Shown here one piece after another: positions 42,942-57,235 of a stretch of 64,000 nt of DNA. The notes under the pieces are model-generated. The model worked only from the letters and a program-made list of their open reading frames with translations, did no database searches and was not told the origin of the DNA. Each line of letters begins with the position of its first letter. Position 1 is the first letter of the stretch. Source of the DNA: an uncultured bacterium (lineage in GTDB: Bacteria; Krumholzibacteriota; Krumholzibacteriia; LZORAL124-64-63); contig CAIWHK010000007.1 in assembly GCA_903912525.1 (NCBI GenBank), forward strand, positions 22,563 to 86,562, read 5' to 3'. The position numbers and the translations under genes are program-made.

Positions 42942-43547
42942 CTACGCCGCCCGCCCGCGCACCGCCGCCCACTCGCCCGACGACTTGATGCGCTTGAGGC
43001 TGCGCGGGCCGTGTGGCTCGCGCGGGGTAAGCATCTGGTCGACGCGCGAGATGAAGTCGCGGCGCGCCGCGTGGAACTGGTCGAGGTGGCGCGGCGCCAG
43101 GCAGCACCACTTCGACTCGACGACCTTCTTCTGGAACAGCGACATCAGCACGACGCGCAGGTTCAGCTCGTCGAACGGGGCGCGGAAGACGGGCTGCGTG
43201 CCGCGCGCCTCCCAGTCGGCGATGGTCTCGCGGCGGCTGCGGCCGATGGCGGTGGCGAGGTCTTCCTGGGACATCCGGTAGAGGCTGCGCAGGTAGGCGA
43301 TTTCCTCGCCGGTCAGGCCGGGGCCGCTCAGGAGGATGACCAGGCCGAGGTAGTCCATGAGTTGCACTTCGTTGAGGATCATCGAGGTACCTTGGCCGCA
43401 CTTGTCACACTCGGTCAATTCGACCGCGTTTCCCTCGAGAAAGACGCCGGTCAGGCCGCAGTGGTCGTACTCGTATCGCGCGGGGTGTTCAAAGCGGGCT
43501 TCCGGGGAGCCGCAGAGGGGGCATGTTCGCGTTCCGGCCAACTTCAC
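42942..43547 (-). CDS. MqsA/YgiT-type zinc finger + Xre HTH antitoxin-like protein (no adjacent toxin)
   Basis: CPLCG..CDKCGQ, LTGEEIAYLR..MSQEDLATAIGRSRRETIADWE. Confidence 0.75.
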   Translation of the reverse strand: MKLAGTRTCPLCGSPEARFEHPARYEYDHCGLTGVFLEGNAVELTECDKCGQGTSMILNEVQLMDYLGLVILLSGPGLTGEEIAYLRSLYRMSQEDLATAIGRSRRETIADWEARGTQPVFRAPFDELNLRVVLMSLFQKKVVESKWCCLAPRHLDQFHAARRDFISRVDQMLTPREPHGPRSLKRIKSSGEWAAVRGRAA

Positions 43548-43603
43548 TTCCCCGTTCTCAGTCGAACCTGTTCCTTCGTCATTCTGTCGCTAATCCTCAC
43601 CTA

Positions 43604-43620
43604 TGTACGTTAAACGTACA
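43604..43620. promoter_or_regulatory. Inverted repeat, probable operator of the MqsA-like gene
   Basis: TGTACGT-TAA-ACGTACA about 57 nt upstream of GTG 43547. Confidence 0.55.
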
Positions 43621-43892
43621 CCATCGAATTGGCAAGCCCGCTGGGGACGCGTGGGCTGTCAGCCAAACCGGCGATGGCCACATGGCGCCCTACAAAGCCC
43701 AGAATGTGACAGGTGCGTCATCAACCGCCACTTGCCGGTGACATCGGCGACGGCACAGCCCACGCGACGGCCCATCATAACCACGGCCAGTGACGGCACT
43801 AGGCCTCGAATGGCGTCCAGCCCTCGCTTGGTCACTGGAGTTGCTCGCCATTGGCTGGCATCGAGAACTGACCAACGGCAAAGGCGGCGCCA

Positions 43893-44909
43893 TTGCTCCC
43901 CGAGATTCCCGACGGTTATCCACAACTGCTCGACGCGCTAAAGGCCCGCATCAGGGAAGCTCGGGTCCGAGCGGCTTCAAGCGTCAACAGCGAGTTGATC
44001 GCGCTCTACTGGCAGATCGGTCAGGAGATCCTTCTGCGCCAGAGGGAGGCCGGCTGGGGATCAAAGGTGGCTGACAGACTGTCAGGAGACCTTCGGAGTG
44101 CATTCCCCAACATGAGAGGCTTCTCGAAATCCAACCTCATGTATATGCGCAAGTTAGCGGCTGCGTGGCCGGCCGGGACAATTTTCCCACAGCTTGTGGG
44201 AAAATTGGCATGGGGCCACAACCGCCTCCTCCTGGACAAGGTGGGGGATCCGGCCGAACGGTGCTGGTACCTGCAGGCCGCCATCGAACACGGCTGGAGT
44301 CGCGATGTCCTCCTGCACCAGATCGAGAGCGGGCTTTGCAACCGACAAGGCAAGGCGATCACGAACTCTGAGCGGGCATTGCCACCGCTGCAATCGGAAC
44401 TCGCGCTGGGCTTGTTGAAGGACCCGTACAACCTCGAATTCCTCGACATGGGAAACGACTTCCGCGAACGCGAACTCCACCGCGGCCTGGTGCGGCACAT
44501 GCGGGACTTCCTGCTCGAATTGGGCTCCGGATTCGCGTTCGTGGGCGACGAGTACCATCTGGAGGTCGGCGGCGCTGACTTCTTCATCGACCTGCTGTTC
44601 TATCACGTCCGTTTGCATTGCTATGTCATCATTGAACTCAAGCCCGGCGAATTCCGTCCGGAACATGCCGGCAAGCTCGGCTTCTATCTTTCAGCGGTCG
44701 ATGACCTGCTGCGCCTGCCGCCGGATGGGCCCAGCATCGGGCTTGTGCTCTGCCGCGAGAAGAACCGCGTTGTGGCGGAATACGCCCTGCGCGAGATCAG
44801 CGCCCCGATGAGCGTGTCGGGCATCACACTGAAGAAGAGCCTGCCGGATGGCCTGCGTGCCAGCCTGCCGACCGTGGAGGAAATCGAATCCAGGCTGCGC
44901 GAATCGTAG
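43893..44909 (+). CDS. yhcG: YhcG/DUF1016 PD-(D/E)XK nuclease-domain protein, copy 1
   Basis: LYWQIG, GWGSKV, RGFSKSNL.YMR, LKDPYNLEFL, FLLELGSGFAFV, IDLLFYH, IELK. Confidence 0.93.
   Translation: MLPEIPDGYPQLLDALKARIREARVRAASSVNSELIALYWQIGQEILLRQREAGWGSKVADRLSGDLRSAFPNMRGFSKSNLMYMRKLAAAWPAGTIFPQLVGKLAWGHNRLLLDKVGDPAERCWYLQAAIEHGWSRDVLLHQIESGLCNRQGKAITNSERALPPLQSELALGLLKDPYNLEFLDMGNDFRERELHRGLVRHMRDFLLELGSGFAFVGDEYHLEVGGADFFIDLLFYHVRLHCYVIIELKPGEFRPEHAGKLGFYLSAVDDLLRLPPDGPSIGLVLCREKNRVVAEYALREISAPMSVSGITLKKSLPDGLRASLPTVEEIESRLRES
44180..44206. repeat. 27-bp coding palindrome inside yhcG copy 1
   Basis: AATTTTCCCACAG-C-TTGTGGGAAAATT; peptide context TIFPQLVGKLA. Confidence 0.9.
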
Positions 44910-44943
44910 GCGACTTGCGCCGGCGCAAGTCCCGCCCATCACC

Positions 44944-44973
44944 AAAGAAAACCCCGGCCGTCACCAGCCGGGG
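44944..44973 (-). terminator. Terminator of the M6 protease gene
   Basis: CCCCGGC-TGGTGACG-GCCGGGG followed by TTTTCTTT. Confidence 0.7.
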
Positions 44974-45012
44974 CTCCCCCAAGACACTTCTTGACCGGCC
45001 GACCGCTCCGGC

Positions 45013-48000
45013 TCACTTCACCAAAGCCAGCCTCCGCACCCACTCGCCGCCACCGGTCACCAACCGGCACATATAACTGCCCGACGCCACAGGCCGGCCG
45101 CGATCGTCGCGTCCGTCCCACACCGTCGTGTGCCGGCCCGCGACCTGTTCGCCCGTGATCAACGTCGTGACGCGGCGGCCGTCCAGGGAGTACACGGCCA
45201 GTTCCACCGTGCCGGCCGTAGCCAGGTCGAAGGCGATCGTCGTCGTGGGATTGAACGGGTTGGGATACGGCGCGCCCAATGCCGTCACCGACGGCACGAC
45301 CGACGGTTGTGCGACATCGCTGGCCACGTTCTGGTCGATGGTGAGCACGCGATCGCCCGCCACGTTCAGGCGCACGGTGGTCGTGCCGTCGGGCCAGCGC
45401 ACGACGACGCTGTCGGCCGTCGTCGCGGCGCCCAGACCGAAAGCAACGCGCAACGCGTTCTGCGCCAGGCTCTCGCCGCCGGCCGAAACGTGGCGCAGCT
45501 GGGAAACTCCACCGACGACGCACCAGACGCGCGCGCCGATGGCCGCGATGTTCGTGCCCTTGCCCTTCAGGTCCAGCTGCAGCCAGTGGCCACGACCGCT
45601 GATGGTATTGCGCAGCAGGACATTCGGCTGGCCGTCGCGCGACAGGTACAAGTCCTGGCCGCCGTCGCCGTCGAGGTCGCCGCAGGCGACGGCCGTGGTC
45701 GCCCCCTGCGCCGCGGGCAGCAGCTGCGACACGCCGAACTGGCCGGCGTCGGCGCCGAACAGCAGCAGGTCGGGCTCGCTGAAGCGGCAGACGTAGATGT
45801 CCAGGCGGCCGTCGTTGTCGAAGTCGGCCATGGCGAGGCCGCGGCCCGATCCGGTGTCGCCCAGGCCGGGGCCGGTGAGCGTGGTCCAGTACGTCCCGTC
45901 ATTGCGATAGAGGACGTCGGCCGAGCCGTCGTTGACCAGGTAGAGGTCCAGGTCGCCGTCGTTGTCGACGTCGCCCCAGGCCGCGGCCTGGCCCGAGCTG
46001 CCGTTGGCCGCCTGGCCCGTTACGAGGAACGTGCCGCCGCCCCCGTTCTGCACCAGCTGGTTCGCCTGCCAGGACATGACGCGGTAGACGTCCAGGTCGC
46101 CGTCGCCGTCGTAGTCGGCCCACGGCGCGGCGGTGCCGGTGCCGGCTGTCTGCAGCGCGGCGATGGCCTGCGGCATGAAGAAGAACTGCCCCGTCCCGAT
46201 GTTGCCGTACGAGCGGGCGAGCATGCTCGCCGTGCCGGTGTTGACCAGCGAGAGGTCGAGCAGGCCGTCGCGGTCGTAGTCGCACCACGCCGCGGCGCGG
46301 CCGGCGCCGGCGTCGTCGACGCCGTACTGCGCGATGTTGGTGAACGTGCCGTTGCCGTTGTTGGCCAGCAGCTGGTTGGCCTGGCCGTCGCGCGACAGGT
46401 AGACGTCCTGGTCGCCGTCGCCGTCGAAGTCGCACCACGCGGCGGCCATCGTCAGGCCGGTGTCGGTCAGCAGGCCGGTGGCGATGTCGGTGAACGACAG
46501 GTTGCCGTCGTTGCGCAGCAGGCGGTTGGCCGAGCCGCGGTTGCAGATGTAGAGATCGAGGTCGCCGTCGGCATCGTAATCGAGCAGGCTGACGCCGCGG
46601 CCCGCGCCCGCATCGCCGAGCGCGCCGGCCGACGTCGCGGTGAACGGCGCGTTCGTGTGGACGCCCGTGAACGCGAGCGCCGCGCCGCTGGTGGCCACGG
46701 TGCCGGTCACGACGGCCGGTGACGGCGAGGTCCAGCCGGGCACGCCCAGCCAGGTCAGCGTGAACAGCCCCGGGGCCCAGACCACCACCGAGGCGTCGCC
46801 GACGCCCGTCTCCTGGTAGCCGTCGGGGCCGTCCAGCCGCCACGGCGCCTGCAGGCCCGCGGGCTGAACTGCGATGTTGACGGCCAGCGAGCCGACCGCC
46901 GGACGGTAACTGAACGTCATGGTCGATGCGCTCGCACTGATCTGGTCGATGTACACGGGCGCGACGGAACCATTCCACCACCTGGCGGCCGGGCTGGTGG
47001 CAGGCGTCAGCAGCGTGGAGCCGGGCGCGGACCACAGGTCGGTATAGTCGCCGTAGTTGAGGTAGTACTCGAGATCCCAGCGGCCGTCGGCCTGGACCAG
47101 CGTGCAGTAGTAGTGCCGCGCCGCGGTCATGTCCTGGTAGCTGTTGTTGCCGGACGTGTCGACATGCCAGATGGCCAGGCCCGCATCGGGAAGCGCGGCA
47201 TCGCGGCCGGCCTGCTGCCGGTTCTCGATCATGTAGTACTCGCCCGAGCGCGCCGGGTTGGAGACGCGATAGAAATGGTTGCTGCCGGCGGTGACGGGCA
47301 GGTTGGTGGCCACGCTGGTCAACGCGGTCACCGAGGCCGACCAGCCGGCCGTGTCCTTCAGCGGCGCGCAGGGCTGGACGGGATTGTTGGCCGGCCCCGA
47401 ATTGCACATCAGGCAGAACTGCCCCACGCCGGACGAATCGGAATCGTAGTCGTACAGGTCGGGCCAACCGCAGAGCATGTGACCGTTCTCGTGGCAGAAC
47501 GTGGCCAGCGAGGGCCCCGAGCCGATGTTCGTGATCTGGTAGCGGTAGGTCGAGACGCCGTCCGCGGAATACGAAATGCTGCTGCTGTGCGGCCACAGGC
47601 CCACCGACCAGCCCATGGACGGCTCACCGGCATAGAAGGCGTTGAGGGCGTCGATGACGCCGTCGTGATTGCTGTCGTACTGGCTGTAGTCGAAGCCGCT
47701 GTTGTTCAGCGCGATGAGCGCCTCGCGGATCAGCGCGCGGGCACTGGTTCCATAGGTCTGGGATGCGCTGTCGTAGTACGACTTCGGCTGGGCGGCCCGG
47801 TAGTAGACCGTCGGCGAGAAGTTCGTGTACGTGAGCAGGCCGCCCGACACGTCGTAGAAGTAGTCGCGCACCGAGCCGTGGCTGCTGTAGCCCGTGTAGC
47901 CCGGCAGGTTGAGGTAGGCGTCGAAGTCGGCGGCGGCAATCGTGGCCGGCTGGTCGCTGAAGTCGATGAGCAGGGTGATGCCGCGCACATTGCCGACGGT

Positions 48001-48429
48001 CGTGGCCTGCGTGGCCTTGTTCGCCGCGGGGATCAGTGCCCGCTCGGCGTCGAGCAGCTGCCGCGCCGCCTGGGCTTGCTTCTGCCGCGCCAGCGTCGAC
48101 TGCTTCAGGTGGGGCGTGAGCCCGAGGCCCGCCATCGCGGCGGCATCGCCGGCGCGGACACCGGTGCTCTGGAGATCGTCGCTGCCATTCACGAGCCGCG
48201 CGTAGCAGATCACGCCGGTGCCCGCATCGCGGACCAGAGTGAAGCCGTCGAGCGATTCGATGTGCTGCGAATACTCGTCGCCCCAGACCAGCACGGGCAC
48301 GGCGGCGCCGTCGGGCTGCCGCAGGTCGAAACGGGCGCCGTGGTAGGGGGCGGCGGTGGCGGCGGAGGCCAGGAGGAGCGACAGCGCCAGGGTGACGGGG
48401 GCGGTGAGCCGGGCGAAGTGGCGGAGCAT
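45013..48429 (-). CDS. Secreted M6 (immune inhibitor A-like) metalloprotease with FG-GAP repeats, ASPIC/UnbV and FlgD-Ig
   Basis: GSVRDYF, CHENGH..PDLYD, EYYMIENR, repeated DxDGDGDLDLY, AAIGARV..FGLG..VRWPDG, PYPNPFNP. Confidence 0.92.
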   Translation of the reverse strand: MLRHFARLTAPVTLALSLLLASAATAAPYHGARFDLRQPDGAAVPVLVWGDEYSQHIESLDGFTLVRDAGTGVICYARLVNGSDDLQSTGVRAGDAAAMAGLGLTPHLKQSTLARQKQAQAARQLLDAERALIPAANKATQATTVGNVRGITLLIDFSDQPATIAAADFDAYLNLPGYTGYSSHGSVRDYFYDVSGGLLTYTNFSPTVYYRAAQPKSYYDSASQTYGTSARALIREALIALNNSGFDYSQYDSNHDGVIDALNAFYAGEPSMGWSVGLWPHSSSISYSADGVSTYRYQITNIGSGPSLATFCHENGHMLCGWPDLYDYDSDSSGVGQFCLMCNSGPANNPVQPCAPLKDTAGWSASVTALTSVATNLPVTAGSNHFYRVSNPARSGEYYMIENRQQAGRDAALPDAGLAIWHVDTSGNNSYQDMTAARHYYCTLVQADGRWDLEYYLNYGDYTDLWSAPGSTLLTPATSPAARWWNGSVAPVYIDQISASASTMTFSYRPAVGSLAVNIAVQPAGLQAPWRLDGPDGYQETGVGDASVVVWAPGLFTLTWLGVPGWTSPSPAVVTGTVATSGAALAFTGVHTNAPFTATSAGALGDAGAGRGVSLLDYDADGDLDLYICNRGSANRLLRNDGNLSFTDIATGLLTDTGLTMAAAWCDFDGDGDQDVYLSRDGQANQLLANNGNGTFTNIAQYGVDDAGAGRAAAWCDYDRDGLLDLSLVNTGTASMLARSYGNIGTGQFFFMPQAIAALQTAGTGTAAPWADYDGDGDLDVYRVMSWQANQLVQNGGGGTFLVTGQAANGSSGQAAAWGDVDNDGDLDLYLVNDGSADVLYRNDGTYWTTLTGPGLGDTGSGRGLAMADFDNDGRLDIYVCRFSEPDLLLFGADAGQFGVSQLLPAAQGATTAVACGDLDGDGGQDLYLSRDGQPNVLLRNTISGRGHWLQLDLKGKGTNIAAIGARVWCVVGGVSQLRHVSAGGESLAQNALRVAFGLGAATTADSVVVRWPDGTTTVRLNVAGDRVLTIDQNVASDVAQPSVVPSVTALGAPYPNPFNPTTTIAFDLATAGTVELAVYSLDGRRVTTLITGEQVAGRHTTVWDGRDDRGRPVASGSYMCRLVTGGGEWVRRLALVK

Positions 48430-48591
48430 GGGTACGTCCCGTGGTCGATGGTGGCGGTGCCGGGTGTGTGAGGGCCGGTGGGGATGACAATAGTGCATTA
48501 TAACGCGTTTGGGGGTGATGGATCTACAGAAATGAGGGGGTGCGCCAGTTGCGCCGGCGCAAGTCCCCCGCACCGTAGTCGCAATTTATAA

Positions 48592-49706
48592 CTACCTCAG
48601 CCGCCCCCGAAACGCCCGCTGTGACTTGAGGATTTCCTGCCGCAACGCTTCCGTGTCCGGCAGCATGGTCAGGTAGCGCGAGGCAAAGACGTTGGCGGCG
48701 ATGCCGCCCATCGCGTAGTGGACGACGGCGTCGTTCTTGGCACTGCAGAGGATCAAGCCCACCGGTTCGTGTTCGTCGGGGCCCATGAGGTGTTCGCGGG
48801 CGTAGTTGAGGTAGAGGTTCATCTGGCCGGCGTCGGCGTGGCTGAACTTACCAAGCTTGAGGTCGACCACGACCAGGCAACGCAGGGCGCGGTGGTAGAG
48901 CAAGAGGTCGATGCGATACCACTCGTCGCCGATGCGGATGCGCTTCTGGCGGGCCACGAAGGTGAAGCCGGCTCCCAGTTCGAGCAGGAACGATTCAAGG
49001 TGGCGCACGATGGCGTCCTCGAGGTCGGACTCGCTGTACTCGTCCTTCAGGTCGAGGAACTCGAGGAGGTAGGGGTCGCGGATGTGGTCGCGCAGGGCGA
49101 CGGCATCCGGCGGGGATGGCTTCCTGGCGGACGTGAGCATGCGTTCGGGGTTGGACGAGGCCGAAACGCGCTCGAAGAACTGGGTGCTGATCTGCCTTTC
49201 CAGCTGCCGGACAGTCCAACCGCCGCGAATGGCTTCAGCTTCGTAGAGCGCGCGGGCCTGGGGGTCGCTGACAGACATCAGGCGGATGTAATGGGTCCAC
49301 GACAGGGGGAAGGAATGATGCATAACTGACGCATTTGCAGGCAGTTGTAATTTTACCATCACTGATGGTAAAATCTGATGACTGAGATAAAAAGATCTCA
49401 TTTTGTAAAGACTGGTCGGCGAGAACCCGCGCCCATGCTGGCGGGCCAAGTCGCGCCCCAGCCGCTGCAGCAACTCTTCCCCGTAGATGGCCCGCGGGTT
49501 TCCGTCCTGCTCGAATTCGACGATTCGCCGGCCAATCTCCCAATAGGTCGACACGATGACGCTGCTGGTCGTGCGCACCACGACGCGCCTGGCCTCGTCG
49601 ACCAGGCCGGAGATGCCGACATCAACTCACTGTAGGGCTCCGCACCAGCGGGGCCGGACATCGGCGCGGGGATCCCCGCGTCTTCAGACTTTCGTTTCCT
49701 GACCAT
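48592..49706 (-). pseudogene. yhcG: YhcG/DUF1016 copy 2, with a 1-nt frameshift near 49618 (or restart at GTG 49581)
   Basis: MVRKRKSEDAG..EPYSEL aligns with the copy 3 N-terminus, then shifts frame (ATG TC GGC ATC vs GTG ACG GGA ATC); the remainder is intact and its C-terminal half is near-identical to copy 3. Confidence 0.8.
49349..49375. repeat. 27-bp coding palindrome inside yhcG copy 2
   Basis: AATTTTACCATCA-C-TGATGGTAAAATC; peptide context QILPSVMVKLQ. Confidence 0.9.
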
Positions 49707-49969
49707 GATTCCCGTCCCAATCTGCCGGATGTGCCGACGCGGTCCTGATGCCAACGTGGGTTCACGGATGCGGCGCGACGTGTCGCGGACGATATGCGCC
49801 TGCGGGACAACGTCGTGGCGAAGGTGCTGTCTGCGACGAACCGCACGCAGGGCACCAAACGGGCCGTTCCTGTGGAGTTGCACGGGTTGCGCGATGACGC
49901 CAATGGGGCAGCCACGCACGCATTCGCGGTGGCTATAGGGCAGGCGGCGGGCCAGATGGTGAATGAGGC

Positions 49970-50057
49970 AACTTGCGCCGGCGCAAGTCGGGCCCGTTAC
50001 CGGGCAACTGATTGCTGTTTTGCGACTTGGAATTCTGCCAACAGTGTTGGCAGAATT
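49970..50057 (-). repeat. Composite unit U1: GC palindrome + 41 nt + 27-bp yhcG-type hairpin
   Basis: Hairpin AATTCTGCCAACA-G-TGTTGGCAGAATT at 50031-50057; reads PILPTLLAEFQ in yhcG register. Confidence 0.88.
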
Positions 50058-50260
50058 GGGCAATACAGCAAAAAATCGCTCATTGGGTGGGTCGCGCAAA
50101 GCTGGTGTCCCCACCGATCTCTCCTTCCCCCAGGGAGAATTCAGCCTGGTATTAGCCGTATCGCAGTATGAATGTCCTCCGCGCTTGTCCGCCGAGGCTC
50201 GAGTTGCGCCGGCGCAAGTCCTGACGCTACGACCGCCCCGCATGGGCGTGTATTCTGATA

Positions 50261-50273
50261 AACCTTTTAGGTT
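50261..50273. promoter_or_regulatory. Operator-like palindrome upstream of the higA-like gene
   Basis: AACCT-TTT-AGGTT just downstream of a TATTCT -10-like hexamer. Confidence 0.55.
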
Positions 50274-50351
50274 AATCTTTCTTGGCGGCGATATCCGATC
50301 TGCATATACTCATTGAAGGCCGTACCTGCCTGGACTTCATCGGGGACTACC

Positions 50352-51434
50352 ATGACTGACACCCACGCATTCACGCCAAACTGGGCCTCTCCCCCCGGCA
50401 GTACGATTGCCGACCTGCTGGCCGAGCGCAGCCTGACCCAGGCGGACCTTGCCGACCGCACCGGCTACACGCGCAAGCACATCAACGAACTGGTGCGCGG
50501 CCGCGCGGCGATTTCGTTCGAAGCGGCCCTGAAGCTGGAGACCGTGCTGGGCTCGACGGCCGACTTCTGGATGCGCCGCGAAGTGCAGTACCGCGAGGCG
50601 CTGGCACGGCAGGAGCTCAACCGGCAGTTCAAGGCCTCGGCGCCCTGGCTCAGGCGGATTCCACTGGCAAGCATGGTGCGGCTCGGGTGGGTGGAGCGGT
50701 TCCCTGATTCCGGGCAGCAGGTGGCCGCCTGCCTGCGGTATTTCGGCGTGGCCACGGTCGAGGCCTGGGAAGCGACGTACGCGGAACCCCTGGCGGCCTT
50801 CCGCAGGTCACCCAACGCCGAGACGGCCGGCGCGGCGGCCGCAGCCTGGCTGCGACAGGGCGAACTGCAGGCGGCCGCCATCCGGACCGGGGACTACAGC
50901 GCGTCCGGGTTGCGCGCGTGCCTGCCCCGACTGCGGCAGCTCACGCTGCTCACCGACCCCGACGCATTCGTACCCGCACTGACCGGCATGTGCGCGGAAG
51001 TGGGCATCGCCGTCGTGTTCGTGCCCACGCCGCAGGGATGTCCCGCCTACGGCGCCACGCGGTGGCTCTCTCCCACCAAGGCGCTGCTGATGCTCAGCAA
51101 CCGCACCAAGACCCACGATGTGCTGTGGTTCACCTTCTTCCATGAGATCTGCCACCTGCTGCACCACAGCAAGAAGATGACCGTCATCGAGGGCGGCCGG
51201 AGCCTGGACGCCGGCCTCGAGGAAGAGGCCGACACGTTTGCCGCCCACATCCTGATTCCGCCGGCGGACGCGCGCCGCATCGAGGAATTGCCCCGCAACG
51301 CGGATGCCATTGCTTCGTTCGCCCGTGAGATCGGGGTTGCGCCGGGGATCGTGCTGGGGCGGATGCAGAAGATGGGGCTGATCGGCTGGTCCAGGTGTGG
51401 GGAGTTGAAGGTCAGGTATGAGATCGGCGGGTGA
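50352..51434 (+). CDS. higA: HigA-family HTH antitoxin fused to an ImmA/IrrE (M78) metallopeptidase (no HigB toxin gene)
   Basis: SPPGSTI..LTQADLADRTG..KHINELVRG..ADFWM, AAWLRQGE, GATRWLS, WFTFFHEICH, EEEADTFA. Confidence 0.85.
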   Translation: MTDTHAFTPNWASPPGSTIADLLAERSLTQADLADRTGYTRKHINELVRGRAAISFEAALKLETVLGSTADFWMRREVQYREALARQELNRQFKASAPWLRRIPLASMVRLGWVERFPDSGQQVAACLRYFGVATVEAWEATYAEPLAAFRRSPNAETAGAAAAAWLRQGELQAAAIRTGDYSASGLRACLPRLRQLTLLTDPDAFVPALTGMCAEVGIAVVFVPTPQGCPAYGATRWLSPTKALLMLSNRTKTHDVLWFTFFHEICHLLHHSKKMTVIEGGRSLDAGLEEEADTFAAHILIPPADARRIEELPRNADAIASFAREIGVAPGIVLGRMQKMGLIGWSRCGELKVRYEIGG

Positions 51435-51440
51435 CCTGGC

Positions 51441-51528
51441 CACTTGCGCCGGCGCAAGTCCGGCCGGATCGCGCCTAAGCGATTGATTTCCCGCTCTTTG
51501 GAATTTTATCATCACTGATGAGAATATT
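51441..51528 (-). repeat. Composite unit U2
   Basis: 41-nt gap; hairpin AATTTTATCATCA-C-TGATGAGAATATT at 51502-51528; reads PIFSSVMIKFQ. Confidence 0.88.
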
Positions 51529-51546
51529 GGGCAACGCCGGCAGGCC

Positions 51547-52182
51547 CTACCGATAGCAGTCATGGAACCACTCGGGTCCAAGCCGGATGAACGTGTTCAC
51601 GGCAGCCGCGAGTCTCGCACCGGGCGCCGCACTGGCCGCCAGGACCCTCTTGCCATGCGCCCGCACAGCATCGACGGCTGGCGTGAAGTCGCCATCGGCC
51701 GACAGCAGGTACGCGGTATCGAATTCGTCGCGCTCGGCCATCACGACCATGTCGACGGCCAGAAAGACATCAACGGCTTTTTCGACATAGGCCGTGGCAC
51801 GCATGTTCCGCCGCGCGATGTCATACAGGTCCCGGTAAACCTGCTGGTCGATGCGCGTGGACAATGTCGTGAGATAGTCCTTGAGTTCCCTGGCCGCGTT
51901 GTCAGTCACCGGGCGTGACTCGAGGCGCCCGAAGTGCACGCTGATCTTCGGCGACGATGCCCTGAGAGCGGCAATGAACCTGCGCTGGGCCGCATAGAGT
52001 GCCAGACTGCTTCGTTGCTCGACCTGGCCTACGTAGTACCTGGTGGCGCACCACTGCCGCGGCCCGACGAGCTTGCGCGAAATCACCCCATAGTCGAGCC
52101 GACCCAAGTCGGCGATGCCATGCTGCTTGGCGCCGTGATACCAGTTGTTGCCATCGATGAAGAGCACTGCGCGTTCAGCCAC
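51547..52182 (-). CDS. NYN (LabA/DUF88, PIN-like) domain ribonuclease
   Basis: LFIDGNNWY, EKAVDVFLAVDM, YLLSADGDFTPAV..GKRV. Confidence 0.9.
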   Translation of the reverse strand: MAERAVLFIDGNNWYHGAKQHGIADLGRLDYGVISRKLVGPRQWCATRYYVGQVEQRSSLALYAAQRRFIAALRASSPKISVHFGRLESRPVTDNAARELKDYLTTLSTRIDQQVYRDLYDIARRNMRATAYVEKAVDVFLAVDMVVMAERDEFDTAYLLSADGDFTPAVDAVRAHGKRVLAASAAPGARLAAAVNTFIRLGPEWFHDCYR

Positions 52183-52193
52183 GGCGCCGACCC

Positions 52194-52270
52194 AAAAGAA
52201 AAACCCCGGCGTGTGGCTGAGCCAGACCCCGGGGGGATAAAACACCCGGTCCCGTGGGATCCGAGCGACC
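52194..52270 (-). ncRNA. Putative two-hairpin leader RNA ending in a terminator directly before the NYN gene
   Basis: GCTCGG-A-TCC-CACG-GGA-CCGGGT, then CCCCGG..TGGC-TCA-GCCA..CCGGGG-TTTTTCTTTT; second copy at 55229-55308. Confidence 0.5.
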
Positions 52271-52273
52271 CGC

Positions 52274-52303
52274 AGTATACACAGGGCTGGGCTGCCGTGT
52301 CAA
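52274..52303 (-). promoter_or_regulatory. sigma70 promoter for the leader RNA/NYN gene
   Basis: TTGACA-N18-TATACT. Confidence 0.7.
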
Positions 52304-52708
52304 CTGCAGTGGCGAAGCGCTAAAGAAGAGCCCTCCGGGGCGCCACCAGAAGGGGGTCAACCGGCTCAGCAAGCCGGGCTGGGGTTGATACGCATTCAGT
52401 TGCGATCTGATCGCGGGGCGGGTCAAGGGCGATTCCCTCTTTGGCGCTGGAGTGGGCCGGCGCGGTCGAGAATGCAAGGACCCCGCCCGGCGGCGTCCTT
52501 GTCGCTGCGCCAGTGCACAAGTAGTCGCGCAACTGCCGCGTCGTTTGCGCGTCATGACGGCCAAGTTCCGAAAGCCCCCGGGCGAGGTGCCATGCACCTT
52601 GCGAGCCCACCGCAAATACATGTCATGCTCCGTTGACAGCTTCATGGGAGATGGCGCCCGCCGTCTTCACTTGCCGACTTGCGCCGGCGCAAGTTCCCTA
52701 CCCCCACG

Positions 52709-53824
52709 TCAGCGCAACCGCCCCAGAAACGCCCTCTGCGTCCGAATGATCTCCTGCCGCAGCGACTCCGTGTCCGGCAGCACCGTCAGGTAGCGCGAGG
52801 CGAAGACGTTCGCGGCGATGCCGCCCATCGCGTAGTGGACGACGGCGTCGTTCTTCGCGCTGCAGAGAATCAAGCCCACCGGCTCGTGCTCGTCGGGGCC
52901 CATGAGGTGCTCGCGCGCGTAGTTGAGGTAGAGGTTCATCTGGCCGGCGTCGGCGTGCGTGAACTTGCCGAGCTTGAGGTCGACCACGACCAGGCAGCGC
53001 AGCGCGCGGTGGTAGAGCAAGAGGTCGATGCGGTACCACTCGTCGCCGATGCGGATGCGCTTCTGCCTCGCCACGAACGTGAAGCCGGCGCCCAGTTCGA
53101 GCAGGAACGATTCGAGGTGGCGGACGATGGCGTCCTCGAGATCGGACTCGCTGTACTCATCCTTCAGGTCGAGGAACTCGAGGAGGTACGGGTCGCGGAT
53201 GTGGTGCTGCAGTTCGGCGGGGTCGACAGGCGCGGGCTTGCGCGCGGCGGCGAGCATGCGGTCGGGGTTGGCGGACGCGGTGACGCGCTCGAAGAACTGC
53301 GTGCTGATCTGGCGGTCGAGCTGGCGGACGGACCAGCCGGAGCGGATAGCTTCGGATTCGTAGAGGGTGCGGGCGGCGTGGTTTTCGACGGACATCAGAC
53401 GGACGTAATGTGACCACGAAAGGGGGAAGGAAATGGGCGTAACTGACGACTCATCAAGTGTTTGTAATTTTCTCGACACTGTCGAGAATATCTGCAATTC
53501 CAGATAAAAACATCTCATTTTGTAAAGTCCCGGCCTGGAGAATCCCCTGCCGTATCGGCTGGACAGATCGCGCCCCAGACGCGTGAGCAACTCTTCGCCA
53601 TACTCGGCGCGGACACGCCCACCCTGTTCATATTCGACGATTCGGCGTCCGATTTCCCAGTACGCCGACACGACGACGCTTTGCGTCGATCGCACGACAG
53701 AGCGCCGGGCCTCTTCCAGTAGGCCGGAGATTCCCGTCACCAGTTCTCCGTAGGGCTCCGCGCCGGATGCACCGGACGTCGGTGCGGGGACCCTCGCGTC
53801 CCGAGGCTTTCGATTCCTGGCCAT
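52709..53824 (-). CDS. yhcG: YhcG/DUF1016 copy 3 (intact)
   Basis: YWEIGRRIVEYEQGG..YG, GRGFS, LSWSHY, IRDPYLLEFL, RIDLLLYHR, DAGQMNLYLNY. Confidence 0.93.
   Translation of the reverse strand: MARNRKPRDARVPAPTSGASGAEPYGELVTGISGLLEEARRSVVRSTQSVVVSAYWEIGRRIVEYEQGGRVRAEYGEELLTRLGRDLSSRYGRGFSRPGLYKMRCFYLELQIFSTVSRKLQTLDESSVTPISFPLSWSHYVRLMSVENHAARTLYESEAIRSGWSVRQLDRQISTQFFERVTASANPDRMLAAARKPAPVDPAELQHHIRDPYLLEFLDLKDEYSESDLEDAIVRHLESFLLELGAGFTFVARQKRIRIGDEWYRIDLLLYHRALRCLVVVDLKLGKFTHADAGQMNLYLNYAREHLMGPDEHEPVGLILCSAKNDAVVHYAMGGIAANVFASRYLTVLPDTESLRQEIIRTQRAFLGRLR
53466..53492. repeat. 27-bp coding palindrome inside yhcG copy 3
   Basis: AATTTTCTCGACA-C-TGTCGAGAATATC; peptide context QIFSTVSRKLQ. 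Confidence 0.9.
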
Positions 53825-54087
53825 GCTTCCCATTCCCATCTGCCGGATGTACCGACGCGGTCCAGATGCCAACGAGAGTTCACGGAAGAGGCGCGATGTG
53901 TCGCGGGTGATGGGCGCCTGCGGTGCGACGTCGGGGATGAATCATTGCCGACGACAAACCACATTCGCGGCGCCAATCGAGCCTTTCCTAGGGAGATGCC
54001 GGCGCTGGGCGGCGGCGCCGATTAGGCGGCCACGCACACACAGCGATGGCCATTGAGGCAGGCGGCAGGCCAGATGGTGAACGTGGC

Positions 54088-54175
54088 GACGTGCGCCGGC
54101 GCAAGTCAGCCCGATTTCGGCGCAAACAGTTGTCGCGGCGTGACTTGGAATTTTACCATCACTGATGGTAAAATT
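54088..54175 (-). repeat. Composite unit U3
   Basis: 41-nt gap; hairpin AATTTTACCATCA-C-TGATGGTAAAATT at 54149-54175 (26/27 identical to the yhcG copy 2 hairpin); reads PILPSVMVKFQ. Confidence 0.88.
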
Positions 54176-54400
54176 GGCCAAAACAGAAAACAATCTCACA
54201 TCAAGCAACATCGGCACGCACTGCTGCGCGCTACCGCGAGGCCGTGAACACACATCCAATCGGTGCCGCCCTGGCGAAGAACGCGCCCCTGTGCCCACTC
54301 CTGGCGGCGCTCCCAGCCGCCCACCTCAGAACGCCGGACCAAGCAGACCGGCCGATCCGGGCACAACTGCTGCCTACAAATGGTCGCGAACCGCCGCACC

Positions 54401-54487
54401 GACTTGCGCCGGCGCAAGTCGACGGCCTTCGACATAACTGGTTCCAAAACAATCAATTGGAATTTTCCCGACAGTGTCGGGAAAATC
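54401..54487 (-). repeat. Composite unit U4
   Basis: 40-nt gap; hairpin AATTTTCCCGACA-G-TGTCGGGAAAATC at 54461-54487; reads QIFPTLSGKFQ. Confidence 0.88.
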
Positions 54488-54505
54488 TGACGGCAGGCAC
54501 AGCCC

Positions 54506-54540
54506 TGCACATAACTAAATCTTGGGTTAAGTTTTGTGCA
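54506..54540. promoter_or_regulatory. Inverted repeat, probable AbiEi autoregulatory operator
   Basis: TGCACATAACT..AGTTTTGTGCA abutting ATG 54540. Confidence 0.5.
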
Positions 54541-55127
54541 TGGACACCAAGACACAAAGCCACCGCGCCGGCCCCAGCTGGGACCAGCTCTACGAAACCG
54601 CTGCCGCCCAGGCCGGCCACTTCACGACGGCCCAGGCCGAGGCCGCGGGGTACTCGCCCCAGCTGCTGGCCAAGTACCTGGCCAACGGGCGTGTGGTCAG
54701 GGTGCGTCGCGGCGTGTACCGCCTCACCCATTTTCCGGCGGGCGAACTCGAGGAGTTCGCCGTCGTGTGGCTGTGGAGCGAGCGGGCCGGGGTCTTTTCG
54801 CATGAGACGGCGCTGTTTCTGCATGGGCTGTCCGATGCGCTGCCGTCACGAGTCCACCTGACGCTGCCCGCGGATTGGCGTCGGCGAAGGCTGCGCGTAC
54901 CGGATGGCGTCGCGACGCACTTCGGCGAGGTGGCCGGTGCGGATCGCGGCTGGGTGGGCCCGGTGCCTGTGACCGCTGTTGCGCGGACGCTCGTCGATTG
55001 TGCGGAGGCCGGGGTTGCGCCGGAGATGGTGCGCGATGCCATGGAGCAGGCGATCGAGCGTGGGATGATTCGCAAGGGATCAGTGCCGCGACTTGCGCCG
55101 GCGCAAGTCCGGCCGGATCGCGCCTAA
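54540..55127 (+). CDS. abiEi: Orphan AbiEi-family antitoxin
   Basis: AAQAGHFTTAQAEAAG, RVRRGVYRL, SHETALFLHGLSD, VTAVARTLVD; the C-terminus runs through a GC palindrome (RLAPAQV). Confidence 0.85.
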   Translation: MDTKTQSHRAGPSWDQLYETAAAQAGHFTTAQAEAAGYSPQLLAKYLANGRVVRVRRGVYRLTHFPAGELEEFAVVWLWSERAGVFSHETALFLHGLSDALPSRVHLTLPADWRRRRLRVPDGVATHFGEVAGADRGWVGPVPVTAVARTLVDCAEAGVAPEMVRDAMEQAIERGMIRKGSVPRLAPAQVRPDRA

Positions 55128-55177
55128 GCGATTGATTTTCCGCGCCTTGGAATTTTATCATCACTGATGAGAATATT
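55090..55177 (-). repeat. Composite unit U5 (near-duplicate of U2)
   Basis: 41-nt gap; hairpin at 55151-55177 identical to U2. Confidence 0.88.
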
Positions 55178-55204
55178 GGGCAAAGCCGATCAGGTCCTGG
55201 CGAT

Positions 55205-55340
55205 ATCAGCAATGGAACCACTCGAGGCCAAAAGAAAAACCCCGGCGTGTGGCCAAGCCAGACCCCGGGGGGATTAAGGTGCCCGGTCCCGTGGAATCCG
55301 AGCGGCTGTAAGTATAGCCGATGCCCAAATGCCGCAGCAA
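55205..55340 (-). pseudogene. Second promoter-leader RNA-terminator copy with the NYN coding region deleted
   Basis: TTGCTG-N18-TATACT, same two hairpins, joined directly to the last NYN codons (GLEWFH vs GPEWFH). Confidence 0.7.
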
Positions 55341-55357
55341 CTCCCACCGCCGACTGA

Positions 55358-56152
55358 TCACACATCGCCTTCCTCCACGCCCCCCACCAGTCCCACCGGC
55401 ACGATCAACCGCCACCTGCGGACGAGTCGGCCTCCGCGCGCGCGGTCGAGGTGCACCGGCTGGGCCGGCAGCAGCGACTGCAGGCTGGCCAGGGTCGCGT
55501 CGGGCACGGCCAGTTCGCGCTGGCGGGTGTCGAGCAAGAAGCCGACCCTCGACGCGAGCGTGCGGTTGGCGAGGACGCGGACGTACGCGAGCAGCGCGTC
55601 CGGGTCGATGGCCGGGATCGCCATCAGCGAGCGCCACACCTCGTCGAGGCCGCCGGCAATCGATGGCCGGTCGAGAACGTCGGCCACCGTGCGCTCGAGG
55701 CTGGTCACGCGCACTTCGAGTCCATTGCGGTCCAGGACGTCGATCCACGCCTGCTGCGGGTGGCGCGCGCGCAACTCGCACCGCGGCTGCACCGGCGACA
55801 GGCGGCGGCCCCGGAACGTGGCGGCACGGGCTCGCGTCCAGGTGATGAACGTGAAATTGTCGGACAGGCTCTGCGCACAACCGTGCGCCTCGAGCGCCGT
55901 GTGGTAGGCGGCGGCCGCGTCCGGCGCCATGCGGGCGGCCAGCGCGATGTAATCGGGGGTTGGCTCCCAGGGCTCCGTTGACCCCGGCGGACGACCGACA
56001 TACAGGCCGCTCTTCACGCGCAGCAACCGGCCCTGGCGTACCCAGCGGGCGAGGTGGGCATCGACGGTGGCAGGAGCGCGACCGGGGAGCGCGGCGATCA
56101 GCTCGTCGCGGGTGAAGAGCGGGGTCGTGGCCAGGAAGTGGTCCGGCTTCAT
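55358..56152 (-). CDS. abiEi: Orphan AbiEi-family antitoxin
   Basis: GRLLRVKSGLY, AYHTALEAHG, VRVTSLERTVADVLDRP..GGLDEV, RVGFLL, RRWRLIVP; followed by a GTGA-coupled stub MISRR.. Confidence 0.85.
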   Translation of the reverse strand: MKPDHFLATTPLFTRDELIAALPGRAPATVDAHLARWVRQGRLLRVKSGLYVGRPPGSTEPWEPTPDYIALAARMAPDAAAAYHTALEAHGCAQSLSDNFTFITWTRARAATFRGRRLSPVQPRCELRARHPQQAWIDVLDRNGLEVRVTSLERTVADVLDRPSIAGGLDEVWRSLMAIPAIDPDALLAYVRVLANRTLASRVGFLLDTRQRELAVPDATLASLQSLLPAQPVHLDRARGGRLVRRWRLIVPVGLVGGVEEGDV

Positions 56153-56294
56153 GTTAGTGCCTCCCAATATTTGCAATTTATTACAAATTATGGGCGTCTA
56201 CAACAACGGTGTCGCATGGCCGACCAGCCGCCGGTCCCGGTTGCAGGGCGCCGCCACGAAACACAACGGGCCCCAGTAGGAGCCCAGGGCCTGC

Positions 56295-56382
56295 GACTTG
56301 CGCCGGCGCAAGTCCCCCCAAACGCAGCATAAACGACGACTCTTCAGCCGTTTGTAATTCTCCCGACAGTGTCGAGAGAATT
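56295..56382 (-). repeat. Composite unit U6
   Basis: 41-nt gap; hairpin AATTCTCCCGACA-G-TGTCGAGAGAATT at 56356-56382; reads ILSTLSGELQTAEESS vs IFSTVSRKLQTLDESS in yhcG copy 3. Confidence 0.88.
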
Positions 56383-56499
56383 GGACCATACCGAAAGAAA
56401 TCCCACCCAGCCCACCTCGGCCGCGCCAGCTCGCTCCGCCGGCCACCACCACCCGGCCCGGCGAGCCCAGCGCACCCTGGCCGCACCCCCACCCACCAC

Positions 56500-56716
56500 A
56501 ACCGCAGCACCTGACGAGGCCCCCCCGACCCGGACGCGTTCGGGCCCGCCCTGGCCGGCAGGTGCGCGGAGGTGGGCGTCGCCGTCGTGATCGTGCCCGC
56601 GCCGCAGGGGTGTCCGGCGGGCGGGGCCTCGCGGTGGCTGGCACGCGCCAGGGCGCTGGTGATGGCTGGTGGCCGGACCAGGAGCGGCGTCATGTCGTAA
56701 CACGTTCTGCCATGAT
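56500..56716 (+). pseudogene. Degraded fragment of a higA-ImmA paralog
   Basis: GACCCGGACGCGTTC..TGCGCGGAGGTGGGCGTCGCCGTCGTG..CCGCAGGGGTGTCC..CGGTGGCT aligns with about 50935-51146. Confidence 0.7.
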
Positions 56717-56890
56717 TGGTTAGCTTCGCATGGTCGTCGGCCTGCTCGATCGAGAAGACCGAAATCGCTCAACTTCCCGCCCTATTGTGCCGAAGACAGA
56801 ATGCCTCTTTCGGCATCGATGGGAAGTATCGCGATTGACCGATATTCGCAGTGCGCTTGGCACCATGACCGGCCACTGCAATGAGGAGGG

Positions 56891-57235
56891 ATGACAATGC
56901 CGGCGCGTAACGCCCAACAGCGCAGCCACAGTATCTACGTCATCGAGCTCGACAAAGCAGTTCTGCAGATCAAGCGCTTTCGCGAAGCGAATCCGGGCTA
57001 CAGGGAAGGGATGCCGTGCGTCTACGTCGGGATGACTTGCCGCACGCCGGAAGAGCGCTTCAGGCAGCACATTTCCGGCTACAAGGCCGCGAGGCTCGCG
57101 CATCGATTCGGGATACGATTGAAACCACGACAATACCGAGCGTTCAATCCCATGACCAGAGCCGAGGCAAAGTACATGGAAGTCGAAAAGGCGCGACGGC
57201 TGCGCAATCGGGGATATGGAGTCTGGCAGAACTAG
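56891..57235 (+). CDS. Small GIY-YIG-like nuclease-family protein
   Basis: SIYVIEL..CVYVGMT..PEERFRQH..EAKYME; GAGGAGG RBS. Confidence 0.7.
   Translation: MTMPARNAQQRSHSIYVIELDKAVLQIKRFREANPGYREGMPCVYVGMTCRTPEERFRQHISGYKAARLAHRFGIRLKPRQYRAFNPMTRAEAKYMEVEKARRLRNRGYGVWQN

Follow-up and report, generated by a model that had tools for sequence, protein, structure and literature searches.

Proteins of the YhcG (DUF1016) family have been predicted to be nucleases with a helical N-domain of unknown kind (PMC1189080). The same family is enriched beside programmed inversions, and the passages of that report that deal with it do not mention a palindrome (PMC9881135). In Caulobacter ParB, the arginine R173 at the start of the recognition helix, following a G-x-S motif, reads a guanine, and four residues switch the specificity of the protein (PMC7383237). 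Here we describe a locus that may join these two subjects. It lies in a stretch of 64,000 nucleotides, referred to as the window, from an uncultured bacterium of the Krumholzibacteriota (GenBank assembly GCA_903912525.1, contig CAIWHK010000007.1, positions 22,563 to 86,562). The window is part of contig C7 of genome G000 (4.29 Mb, 68.7% GC, 97.75% complete, 72 contigs). Three yhcG genes each contain an in-frame 27-bp palindrome, and six further copies stand as orphans between genes. In the reading we favor, to which we give a probability of roughly 0.58, the palindrome would be the site of a ParB-type helix-turn-helix (HTH) in YhcG, and the six orphans would form an operator array for several YhcG variants in a defense island.

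The initial annotation of this DNA had listed nine 27-bp palindromes, and all nine were found at their positions and with their peptides, with 11-13 of the 13 possible pairs formed. Each orphan hairpin is combined with a gap and a GC palindrome, and this combination is called a unit (U1 to U6; Table 1). The gaps measure 41, 41, 41, 40, 41, and 41 nt. The U3 hairpin matches that of yhcG2 at 26/27 positions, the inner 25 being identical. The proposed duplications of U1/U3 and U2/U5 are also real, with blocks that are 79% and 90% identical; the hairpins of U1 and U3 nonetheless differ at 7/27 positions. The claim that the copies read stop-free in the yhcG register held for the hairpins (0/21 units with a stop) but not for the 41-nt gap, which has an in-frame stop in 8 of the 21 distinct units, U1 included. 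Across the genome there are 21 such hairpins, whereas three block shuffles yielded 1, 2, and 1. Of the 21, 19 are located within or next to one of the seven yhcG genes of G000. A chance origin was rejected through these shuffles, and an assembly artifact through the presence of the hairpins in independent congeners. The GC palindrome is a genome-wide repeat resembling the repetitive extragenic palindromic (REP) type, with 314 copies at ≤2 mismatches (159 exact). Only 11 of the 314 have a palindrome centered 58-70 bp away, and six of these are U1-U6. A spacing of about 41 nt is real at this array, but a scan of the genome and its relatives found the spacing to be locus-specific and confined to one genus. 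No Rfam family matched at E≤1 in 43500-57000.

Within the yhcG family, the hairpin is present in frame in 83/84 unique genes parsed from all loci, and in 12 of the 13 named yhcG records, E. coli K-12 included. In nearly all yhcG genes it lies in frame about 15-100 bp past the codons of the predicted helix, and distant homologues carry several tandem copies. E. coli strains vary in both the number of in-gene hairpins (one to three) and their allele. In two of these strains, a different helix is found together with a new hairpin in first place, and the older type takes second place. The literature searched, with subscription journals largely outside its coverage, held no account of the palindrome or of a code. 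Two side observations concern the E. coli genes. At gltD-yhcG-nanQ (L063, L076-L083), an orphan lies 15 bp past the stop codon, with another past gltD in one strain. In BL21, a gene replacement falls exactly at the third hairpin, and IS1 is found inside that hairpin in one strain.

DUF1016_N and YhcG_C are the only domains found in the YhcG proteins, and together they span them. Both Pfam domains score above cut-off in all three window genes, which also match the PADLOC candidate PDC-S02 at E≤1e-123. Alignment with hhalign of 40 YhcG N-domains to 26 ParB HTH domains gave a probability of 94.3 (E 1e-7, 75 columns) and placed the GFS-x-x-N-L motif on the ParB recognition helix, with a nuclease-part control scoring 0.4. 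The top structure matches for the N-domain of the YhcG3 model were ParB-parS (6s6h; Z 8.1, root-mean-square deviation 4.0, 120 residues aligned) and Spo0J (1vz0; Z 7.6), and the same model matched KorB bound to its operator (1r71) with Z 6.3. The YhcG1 model matched 6s6h with Z 6.3. Structure searches with the models placed the C-domain closest to NucS/EndoMS (Z 10-12). A PDB sequence search with YhcG gave no match at E≤1, and the ESM Atlas gave one, which was uninformative. From the profile and model comparisons, we conclude that the YhcG N-domain is a predicted HTH domain of the ParB/KorB type, an assignment that is new here. According to hhalign and the AlphaFold2 models, the peptide encoded by the palindrome is distinct from the recognition helix. 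It forms a low-confidence loop after helix 113-127 in YhcG3, and a loop with one helical turn after helix 79-91 in YhcG1.

The sequence of the helix is linked to that of the palindrome. Helix positions 2 and 6 are referred to as h2 and h6, and the set comprises 69 genes after seven with atypical hairpin ends were dropped and identical helix-site pairs were merged. An Arg at h2 is accompanied by a G at palindrome base 7 in 23/23 genes, compared to 5/46 with any other residue. Raw mutual information was led by class structure, with top scores in control columns, and tree-based pairs and strata were used instead. On the tree, h2 Arg and base-7 G each change 20 times, with independent pairs at 13.8:0 (p ~1e-4), and on the tree of the N-module alone the pairs stand at 5.7:0. 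Base 7 is the palindrome position with the strongest link, which holds inside each spacing class. In a protein-only set (152 unique), the pairing occurs in 21/22 and 47/49 proteins with the Arg vs. 2/61 and 0/20 without it (pooled, 68/71 and 2/81). Of the genes with Arg or Lys at h6, 20/21 have a C at base 9, vs. 5/48 of the remaining genes. Among 30 close homologues, 6 of the 8 helix types represented more than once show just one inner site. Identical peptides group on the tree of the N-part and not on that of the C-part (nuclease), and the N-terminal part moves together with the palindrome, recombining against the nuclease half. Because the palindrome sits just past the helix codons and co-varies with the helix, it is probably the cognate operator of YhcG itself, inherited with the helix as one module. 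The same linkage argues against the peptide-donor library proposed in the initial annotation.

How such a system might operate can be outlined. A YhcG dimer would read both half-sites, with the Arg at h2 contacting the G:C pair 7 bp from the palindrome center and the Arg or Lys at h6 contacting the pair 5 bp from it. With the site kept next to the helix codons, reader and site could be swapped as one module, and variants would therefore avoid cross-talk. The units would have arisen from one yhcG fragment joined to a REP-like repeat and would have multiplied through repeat-bounded duplication, which could explain the fixed 41-nt gap, while short gene conversion and template switching would have refreshed them. 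Repression or docking is our guess at the function, with bound YhcG sitting on sigma70-like elements that overlap the palindromes. Of the eight sigma70-like matches in 48400-56600, five overlap hairpins (+ strand), where 1.2 matches would be expected in all. Both U1 and U4 point toward cargo genes. The TTG of these matches comes from a CAA that 9/10 unit lineages have kept. With an array of several variants, the island could respond to the paralogues already resident as well as to yhcG alleles that arrive, and the peptide would be a tolerated by-product. An array of binding or recombination sites had been the second suggestion of the initial annotation, and it stands insofar as the palindromes look like YhcG operators; most units, however, are sites of non-resident variants.

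Relatives of G000 provide a view of how the array has changed. G001 (4 hairpins) and G002 (6 hairpins) have the array as well, likewise upstream of the orthologous gene, and it is also found on five metagenome contigs. In G003 the gene is present and the array is missing. Fixed spacing was seen in 10/14 metagenome matches, spread over 5/9 stretches, and GTDB contigs gave no further arrays with it. The cargo varies between strains, with alignment blocks that end at the GC palindrome. At the site orthologous to U6 there are five alleles among six genomes and contigs. One of these alleles is also that of a different unit in the locus, and one is that of the yhcG3 gene, including its mispair. Identical hairpins occur in 8/185 non-orthologous pairs, where a position-frequency model expects 1.2. 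Sharing of alleles between genes and units across strains, a check suggested with the initial annotation, is likewise found, in 4/80 pairs vs. 0.5 expected. Since identical hairpins exceed expectation in both unit-unit and gene-unit pairs, short exchange among hairpin copies is likely. At the U6 site, the hairpin shows only a weak excess of change over its flanks: p is 0.04 when G000 is compared to G002 and 0.26 when L037 is compared to G001, and the ungapped flanks include indel shifts. Changes in hairpins are paired rather than adenine-specific, with 376 two-sided and 221 one-sided. When compared to the 30 closest homologues (at least six helix types), 7/13 unit alleles are identical to the gene site of another variant, and 10/13 have inner residues in common with such sites. 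The U4 hairpin is identical to the gene site of G002 at 27/27 positions. Twenty sequencing runs hold parts of the stretch, as contigs, with no RNA run listed among them; the eight that were compared are of low depth or contain mixed relatives, and their joints at GC palindromes, having short sides, were set aside.

Orphans are also found elsewhere. At least one accompanies 14/75 other yhcG loci (five of the 14 being E. coli strains), compared to one in the shuffle, and two further yhcG loci of G000 carry their own orphan sets with other spacings. At the C57 locus, an orphan of G002 equals the gene site of G000 (25/27), and a G000 orphan holds the half-site of the G004 gene. Several observations belong to these loci. 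The C57 set (G000:C57:14330-15070, L001; also L009 and L011) is the third in the genome, its orphans reciprocally matching the gene alleles of other strains, and the C57 yhcG gene seems to be without part of the nuclease domain (open frame of 273 aa). The second set (G000:C9:47299-48520, L003; L062 in G002) lies upstream of another yhcG and retains the upstream context of that gene; its orphans are 7-8 nt from GC palindromes, and one copy resembles the C11 gene site. In G145 (L197), a yhcG gene has one orphan upstream and two downstream, each sharing 6/7 half-site bases with the site of the gene. In G003 (L034:8376-8480), where the unit array is missing, an element of ~100 bp with terminal inverted repeats of ~21 bp sits in the center of a GC palindrome, with CCGG duplicated.

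A number of points weigh against the operator array. On the protein side, Z scores of 6-8 are in the range that the tool deems common for helical folds, and the Pfam HTH_ParB match on YhcG is weak (E 0.22). The count of 83/84 genes comes from motif-based parsing, and 83 of the 195 matching open reading frames (ORFs) were without the anchor motifs and were not parsed. The datasets behind the code are small, its rule was first spotted by eye in overlapping data, and by independent pairs the h6 rule reaches only p 0.06. The co-variation could instead arise within the protein, through contact of helix residue 2 with residue 7 of the peptide (Ala in 20 of the 23 Arg genes), or it could stem from small recombining blocks that are inherited as such and for which no tree can correct. 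At the level of the array, only 3/151 genomes of the class contain it, all of one genus, so that the spacing is genus-limited. Simple autoregulation would want the exact site of the resident gene in its own array, and this is the case for only 1/5 genes. The gap is 7-8, ~11-31, and 41 nt at different loci, and its length, being locus-specific, therefore points to descent and not geometry. Unit linkers are no more conserved than upstream flanks, and the sigma70-like matches may merely reflect the AT-rich ends of the hairpins.

A bolder extension, which we consider doubtful, is that YhcG proteins would be widespread sequence-specific defense nucleases, each with the site that it targets or guards written into the codons beside its reading helix. 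In this genus, the array would hold the sites of rival variants, could be updated, and would serve as a DNA-level memory for immunity to, or control over, incoming yhcG alleles. If so, reader and site would evolve jointly, as a specificity module that can be swapped and whose amino-acid-to-base code can be read. The family, whose members are candidate phage-defense nucleases, ranges from E. coli K-12 to uncultured phyla. If the palindrome is the operator of YhcG, each yhcG gene would provide a matched protein-site pair, and the thousands of natural examples could be used to learn an HTH code and would lead directly to the substrate of these proteins and to their regulation. The variable peptide repeats of YhcG would then be a record of past specificities. 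The array also raises the possibility that conflict among specificity variants is recorded in non-coding DNA.

Among the other explanations, the one that survives best accepts the in-gene palindrome as an operator and regards the orphans as near-neutral relics, a REP-adjoined yhcG fragment that was amplified and kept palindromic by template switching or conversion. We view this as improbable, though it has several observations in its favor. Decayed yhcG sequence persists for ~25 nt before and ~30 nt after the unit hairpins, units lie beside other relics (the NYN deletion and the IrrE relic), gap length varies by locus, G003 has lost the array, and flips of the hairpin center between CAGTG and CACTG occur. 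However, unit linkers are only ~47% identical among themselves while length and pairing persist, the CAA (three columns) and a TT in the linker are kept in 9-10 of 10 lineages, and all 28 unit copies retain 10-13 of 13 pairs. The U4 orthologue of G003 has decayed to 7/13 pairs with its gap intact, and pairing repair is therefore not automatic.

Less probable still is the donor library, in which units would convert the gene hairpin and thereby vary the peptide, or supply a matching site after the helix mutates. The gene-unit identities above chance and the stop-free unit hairpins are what it would predict, the L042 gene and its adjacent unit have their inner 13 bp in common, and 22 distinct palindrome peptides occur among 31 close homologues. 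Yet the peptide tracks the helix and the N-part tree, and the units have no helix codons to give. The one gene in five that matches a local unit carries an allele that is also found in the G003 gene, which has no array. Furthermore, identity ends at the hairpin edge (the linkers of U3 and yhcG2 are 34% identical), variability is higher in the linker than in the peptide (entropy 2.1 vs. 1.3), and the peptide falls in a poorly modeled loop of YhcG3 and not in the recognition helix. A role as cut or recombination sites is comparably unlikely. In this view, palindrome-bound YhcG would nick or cut the GC hairpin at a distance of ~65 bp, and this would drive cassette exchange or homing of yhcG modules. 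In its favor, the centers of the hairpin and the GC palindrome of a unit lie 63-65 bp apart (one hairpin-hairpin pair, 64 bp), modules border on the GC palindrome, the C-domain resembles NucS/EndoMS, and E. coli yhcG has a varying count of hairpins, with a different gene taking its place precisely from a hairpin end in 2/9 strains. Against it, the other G000 loci have other spacings, a GC palindrome is missing at 65 bp from the in-gene hairpins, and REP-like repeats act as recombination borders by themselves.

Table 1. Features of the yhcG region, in window positions.
Feature	Coordinates	Strand	Remarks
yhcG1	43893..44909	+	DUF1016_N + YhcG_C; PADLOC candidate PDC-S02; short class without linker
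Predicted recognition helix codons of YhcG1	44127..44165	+	K79-A91, KSNLMYMR...; AlphaFold2 helix 79-91; hhalign to ParB
yhcG1 in-gene 27-bp palindrome	44180..44206	+	IFPQLVGKL; predicted cognate operator
GC (REP-like) palindrome	44912..44931	.	3 nt past yhcG1 stop
GC palindrome	48546..48565	.	past yhcG2 stop
yhcG2 open frame	48592..49581	-	linker class; 5' part to ~49706 in another frame, break near 49617-49620
yhcG2 in-gene palindrome	49349..49375	-	ILPSVMVKL; helix PTSLYKMR codons just upstream, ~49419-49381
U1	49970..50057	-	hairpin 50031-50057 (ILPTLLAEF), separated from GC palindrome 49970-49989 by a 41-nt gap that contains an in-frame stop
Cargo gene, HTH + IrrE/M78 peptidase-like	50313..51434	+	
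U2	51441..51528	-	hairpin 51502-51528 (IFSSVMIKF); GC palindrome 51441-51460
Cargo gene, NYN nuclease	51547..52245	-	
GC palindrome	52676..52695	.	past yhcG3 stop
yhcG3	52709..53872	-	intact; linker class
yhcG3 in-gene palindrome	53466..53492	-	IFSTVSRKL; helix RPGLYKMR codons just upstream, ~53536-53498
U3	54088..54175	-	hairpin 54149-54175, site same as that of yhcG2; GC palindrome 54088-54107
U4	54401..54487	-	hairpin 54461-54487; 40-nt gap; ~50 bp ahead of AbiEi gene
Cargo gene, AbiEi-type antitoxin	54534..55127	+	without adjoining toxin gene
U5	55090..55177	-	hairpin 55151-55177; duplicate of U2; then NYN remnant, gene body deleted
Cargo gene, second AbiEi-type	55358..56176	-	
U6	56295..56382	-	hairpin 56356-56382
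Relic resembling HTH-IrrE gene	56419..56664	+	74% to 50848-51092

The genes of the region differ in class and state. YhcG1 belongs to a separate class, being 32% identical to YhcG3 and without the 13-codon linker. The yhcG2 frame shifts near 49617-49620 relative to yhcG3, because of which the gene may be truncated or a pseudogene. The defense-type neighbors of the three genes are the two AbiEi genes, NYN, HTH-IrrE, and GmrSD. Right past a yhcG stop, at 48570-48592 of the window and at ~2520 of L030, there is a palindrome of a different type, clean in G002 and degraded in the window, which presumably resembles those of ORF6N-type genes. An inverted repeat at 54505-54540, just ahead of the AbiEi gene and adjoining U4, is likely an AbiEi operator. 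Both AbiEi antitoxin genes (54534-56176) are without a toxin neighbor; in G003, an ORF of 299 aa that could be the toxin comes directly after the orthologue of the first. At 42942-43547 there is an ORF of 201 aa with a Cys-pair N-terminus and a probable, antitoxin-like HTH, which has kin ORFs in G002 and G003 and for which Pfam and PADLOC gave no match. Between yhcG1 and yhcG2, with GC palindromes at both borders, lies the gene of a secreted protein (45013-48573) with a metalloprotease-like N-part, FG-GAP repeats, and ASPIC/UnbV and FlgD-Ig domains. This gene is absent between the yhcG1 and yhcG2 orthologues of G002 and G003.

Several known systems resemble parts of this locus. As in integron attC arrays, small defense or toxin-antitoxin-like cargo is split by structured sites of variable sequence; here, however, the sites form perfect palindromes, and it is the GC repeat that marks the borders. 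The neighbor proteins that were scanned included no integrase, though no search for one was made across the genome. With pilE/pilS, vlsE, and diversity-generating retroelements, the locus shares variant non-coding copies beside a gene and the sharing of alleles. Unlike those silent cassettes, the copies are 27-bp palindromes without long homologous flanks and the gene allele follows the helix, and a local copy matches the expressed allele in just the one gene of five. Reverse transcriptase was not found among 16 proteins scanned from the window region, the whole genome not having been searched for it. REP repeats and bacterial interspersed mosaic elements (BIMEs) are paired with REP-associated tyrosine transposases (RAYTs), and REP-like repeats are known recombination borders. 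The window GC palindrome is likewise a 20-bp intergenic repeat with hundreds of copies, often right past stop codons and at the borders of rearrangements. The RAYT domain Y1_Tnp (PF01797) was not found in the G000 genome (72 contigs, 97.75% complete), and the YhcG hairpins, in contrast to REPs, are not genome-wide repeats.

The closest likeness is to the ParB group. The window proteins have in common with the published YhcG/DUF1016 account DUF1016_N and the PD-(D/E)XK nuclease domain YhcG_C; the palindrome, operator, and array were not found in the literature searched. In Bacillus subtilis, a parS site lies inside spo0J. ParB-parS, Noc-NBS, and KorB with its operator share with YhcG the HTH fold, the palindromic site, and a helix after G-x-S (PMC7383237). 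YhcG differs from ParB in its PD-(D/E)XK nuclease and in the absence of the N-terminal ParB/CTPase domain, which was not found in the window YhcG proteins; the ParB of the genome is encoded elsewhere. The sites differ as well, since parS is nearly invariant whereas the proposed YhcG site is hypervariable, 27 bp long with an odd center and AATT ends, and held at a fixed codon position beside the helix in almost all members of the family. From these sequence comparisons, YhcG and its palindrome would work like a ParB or KorB operator pair without YhcG being a member of the ParB family.

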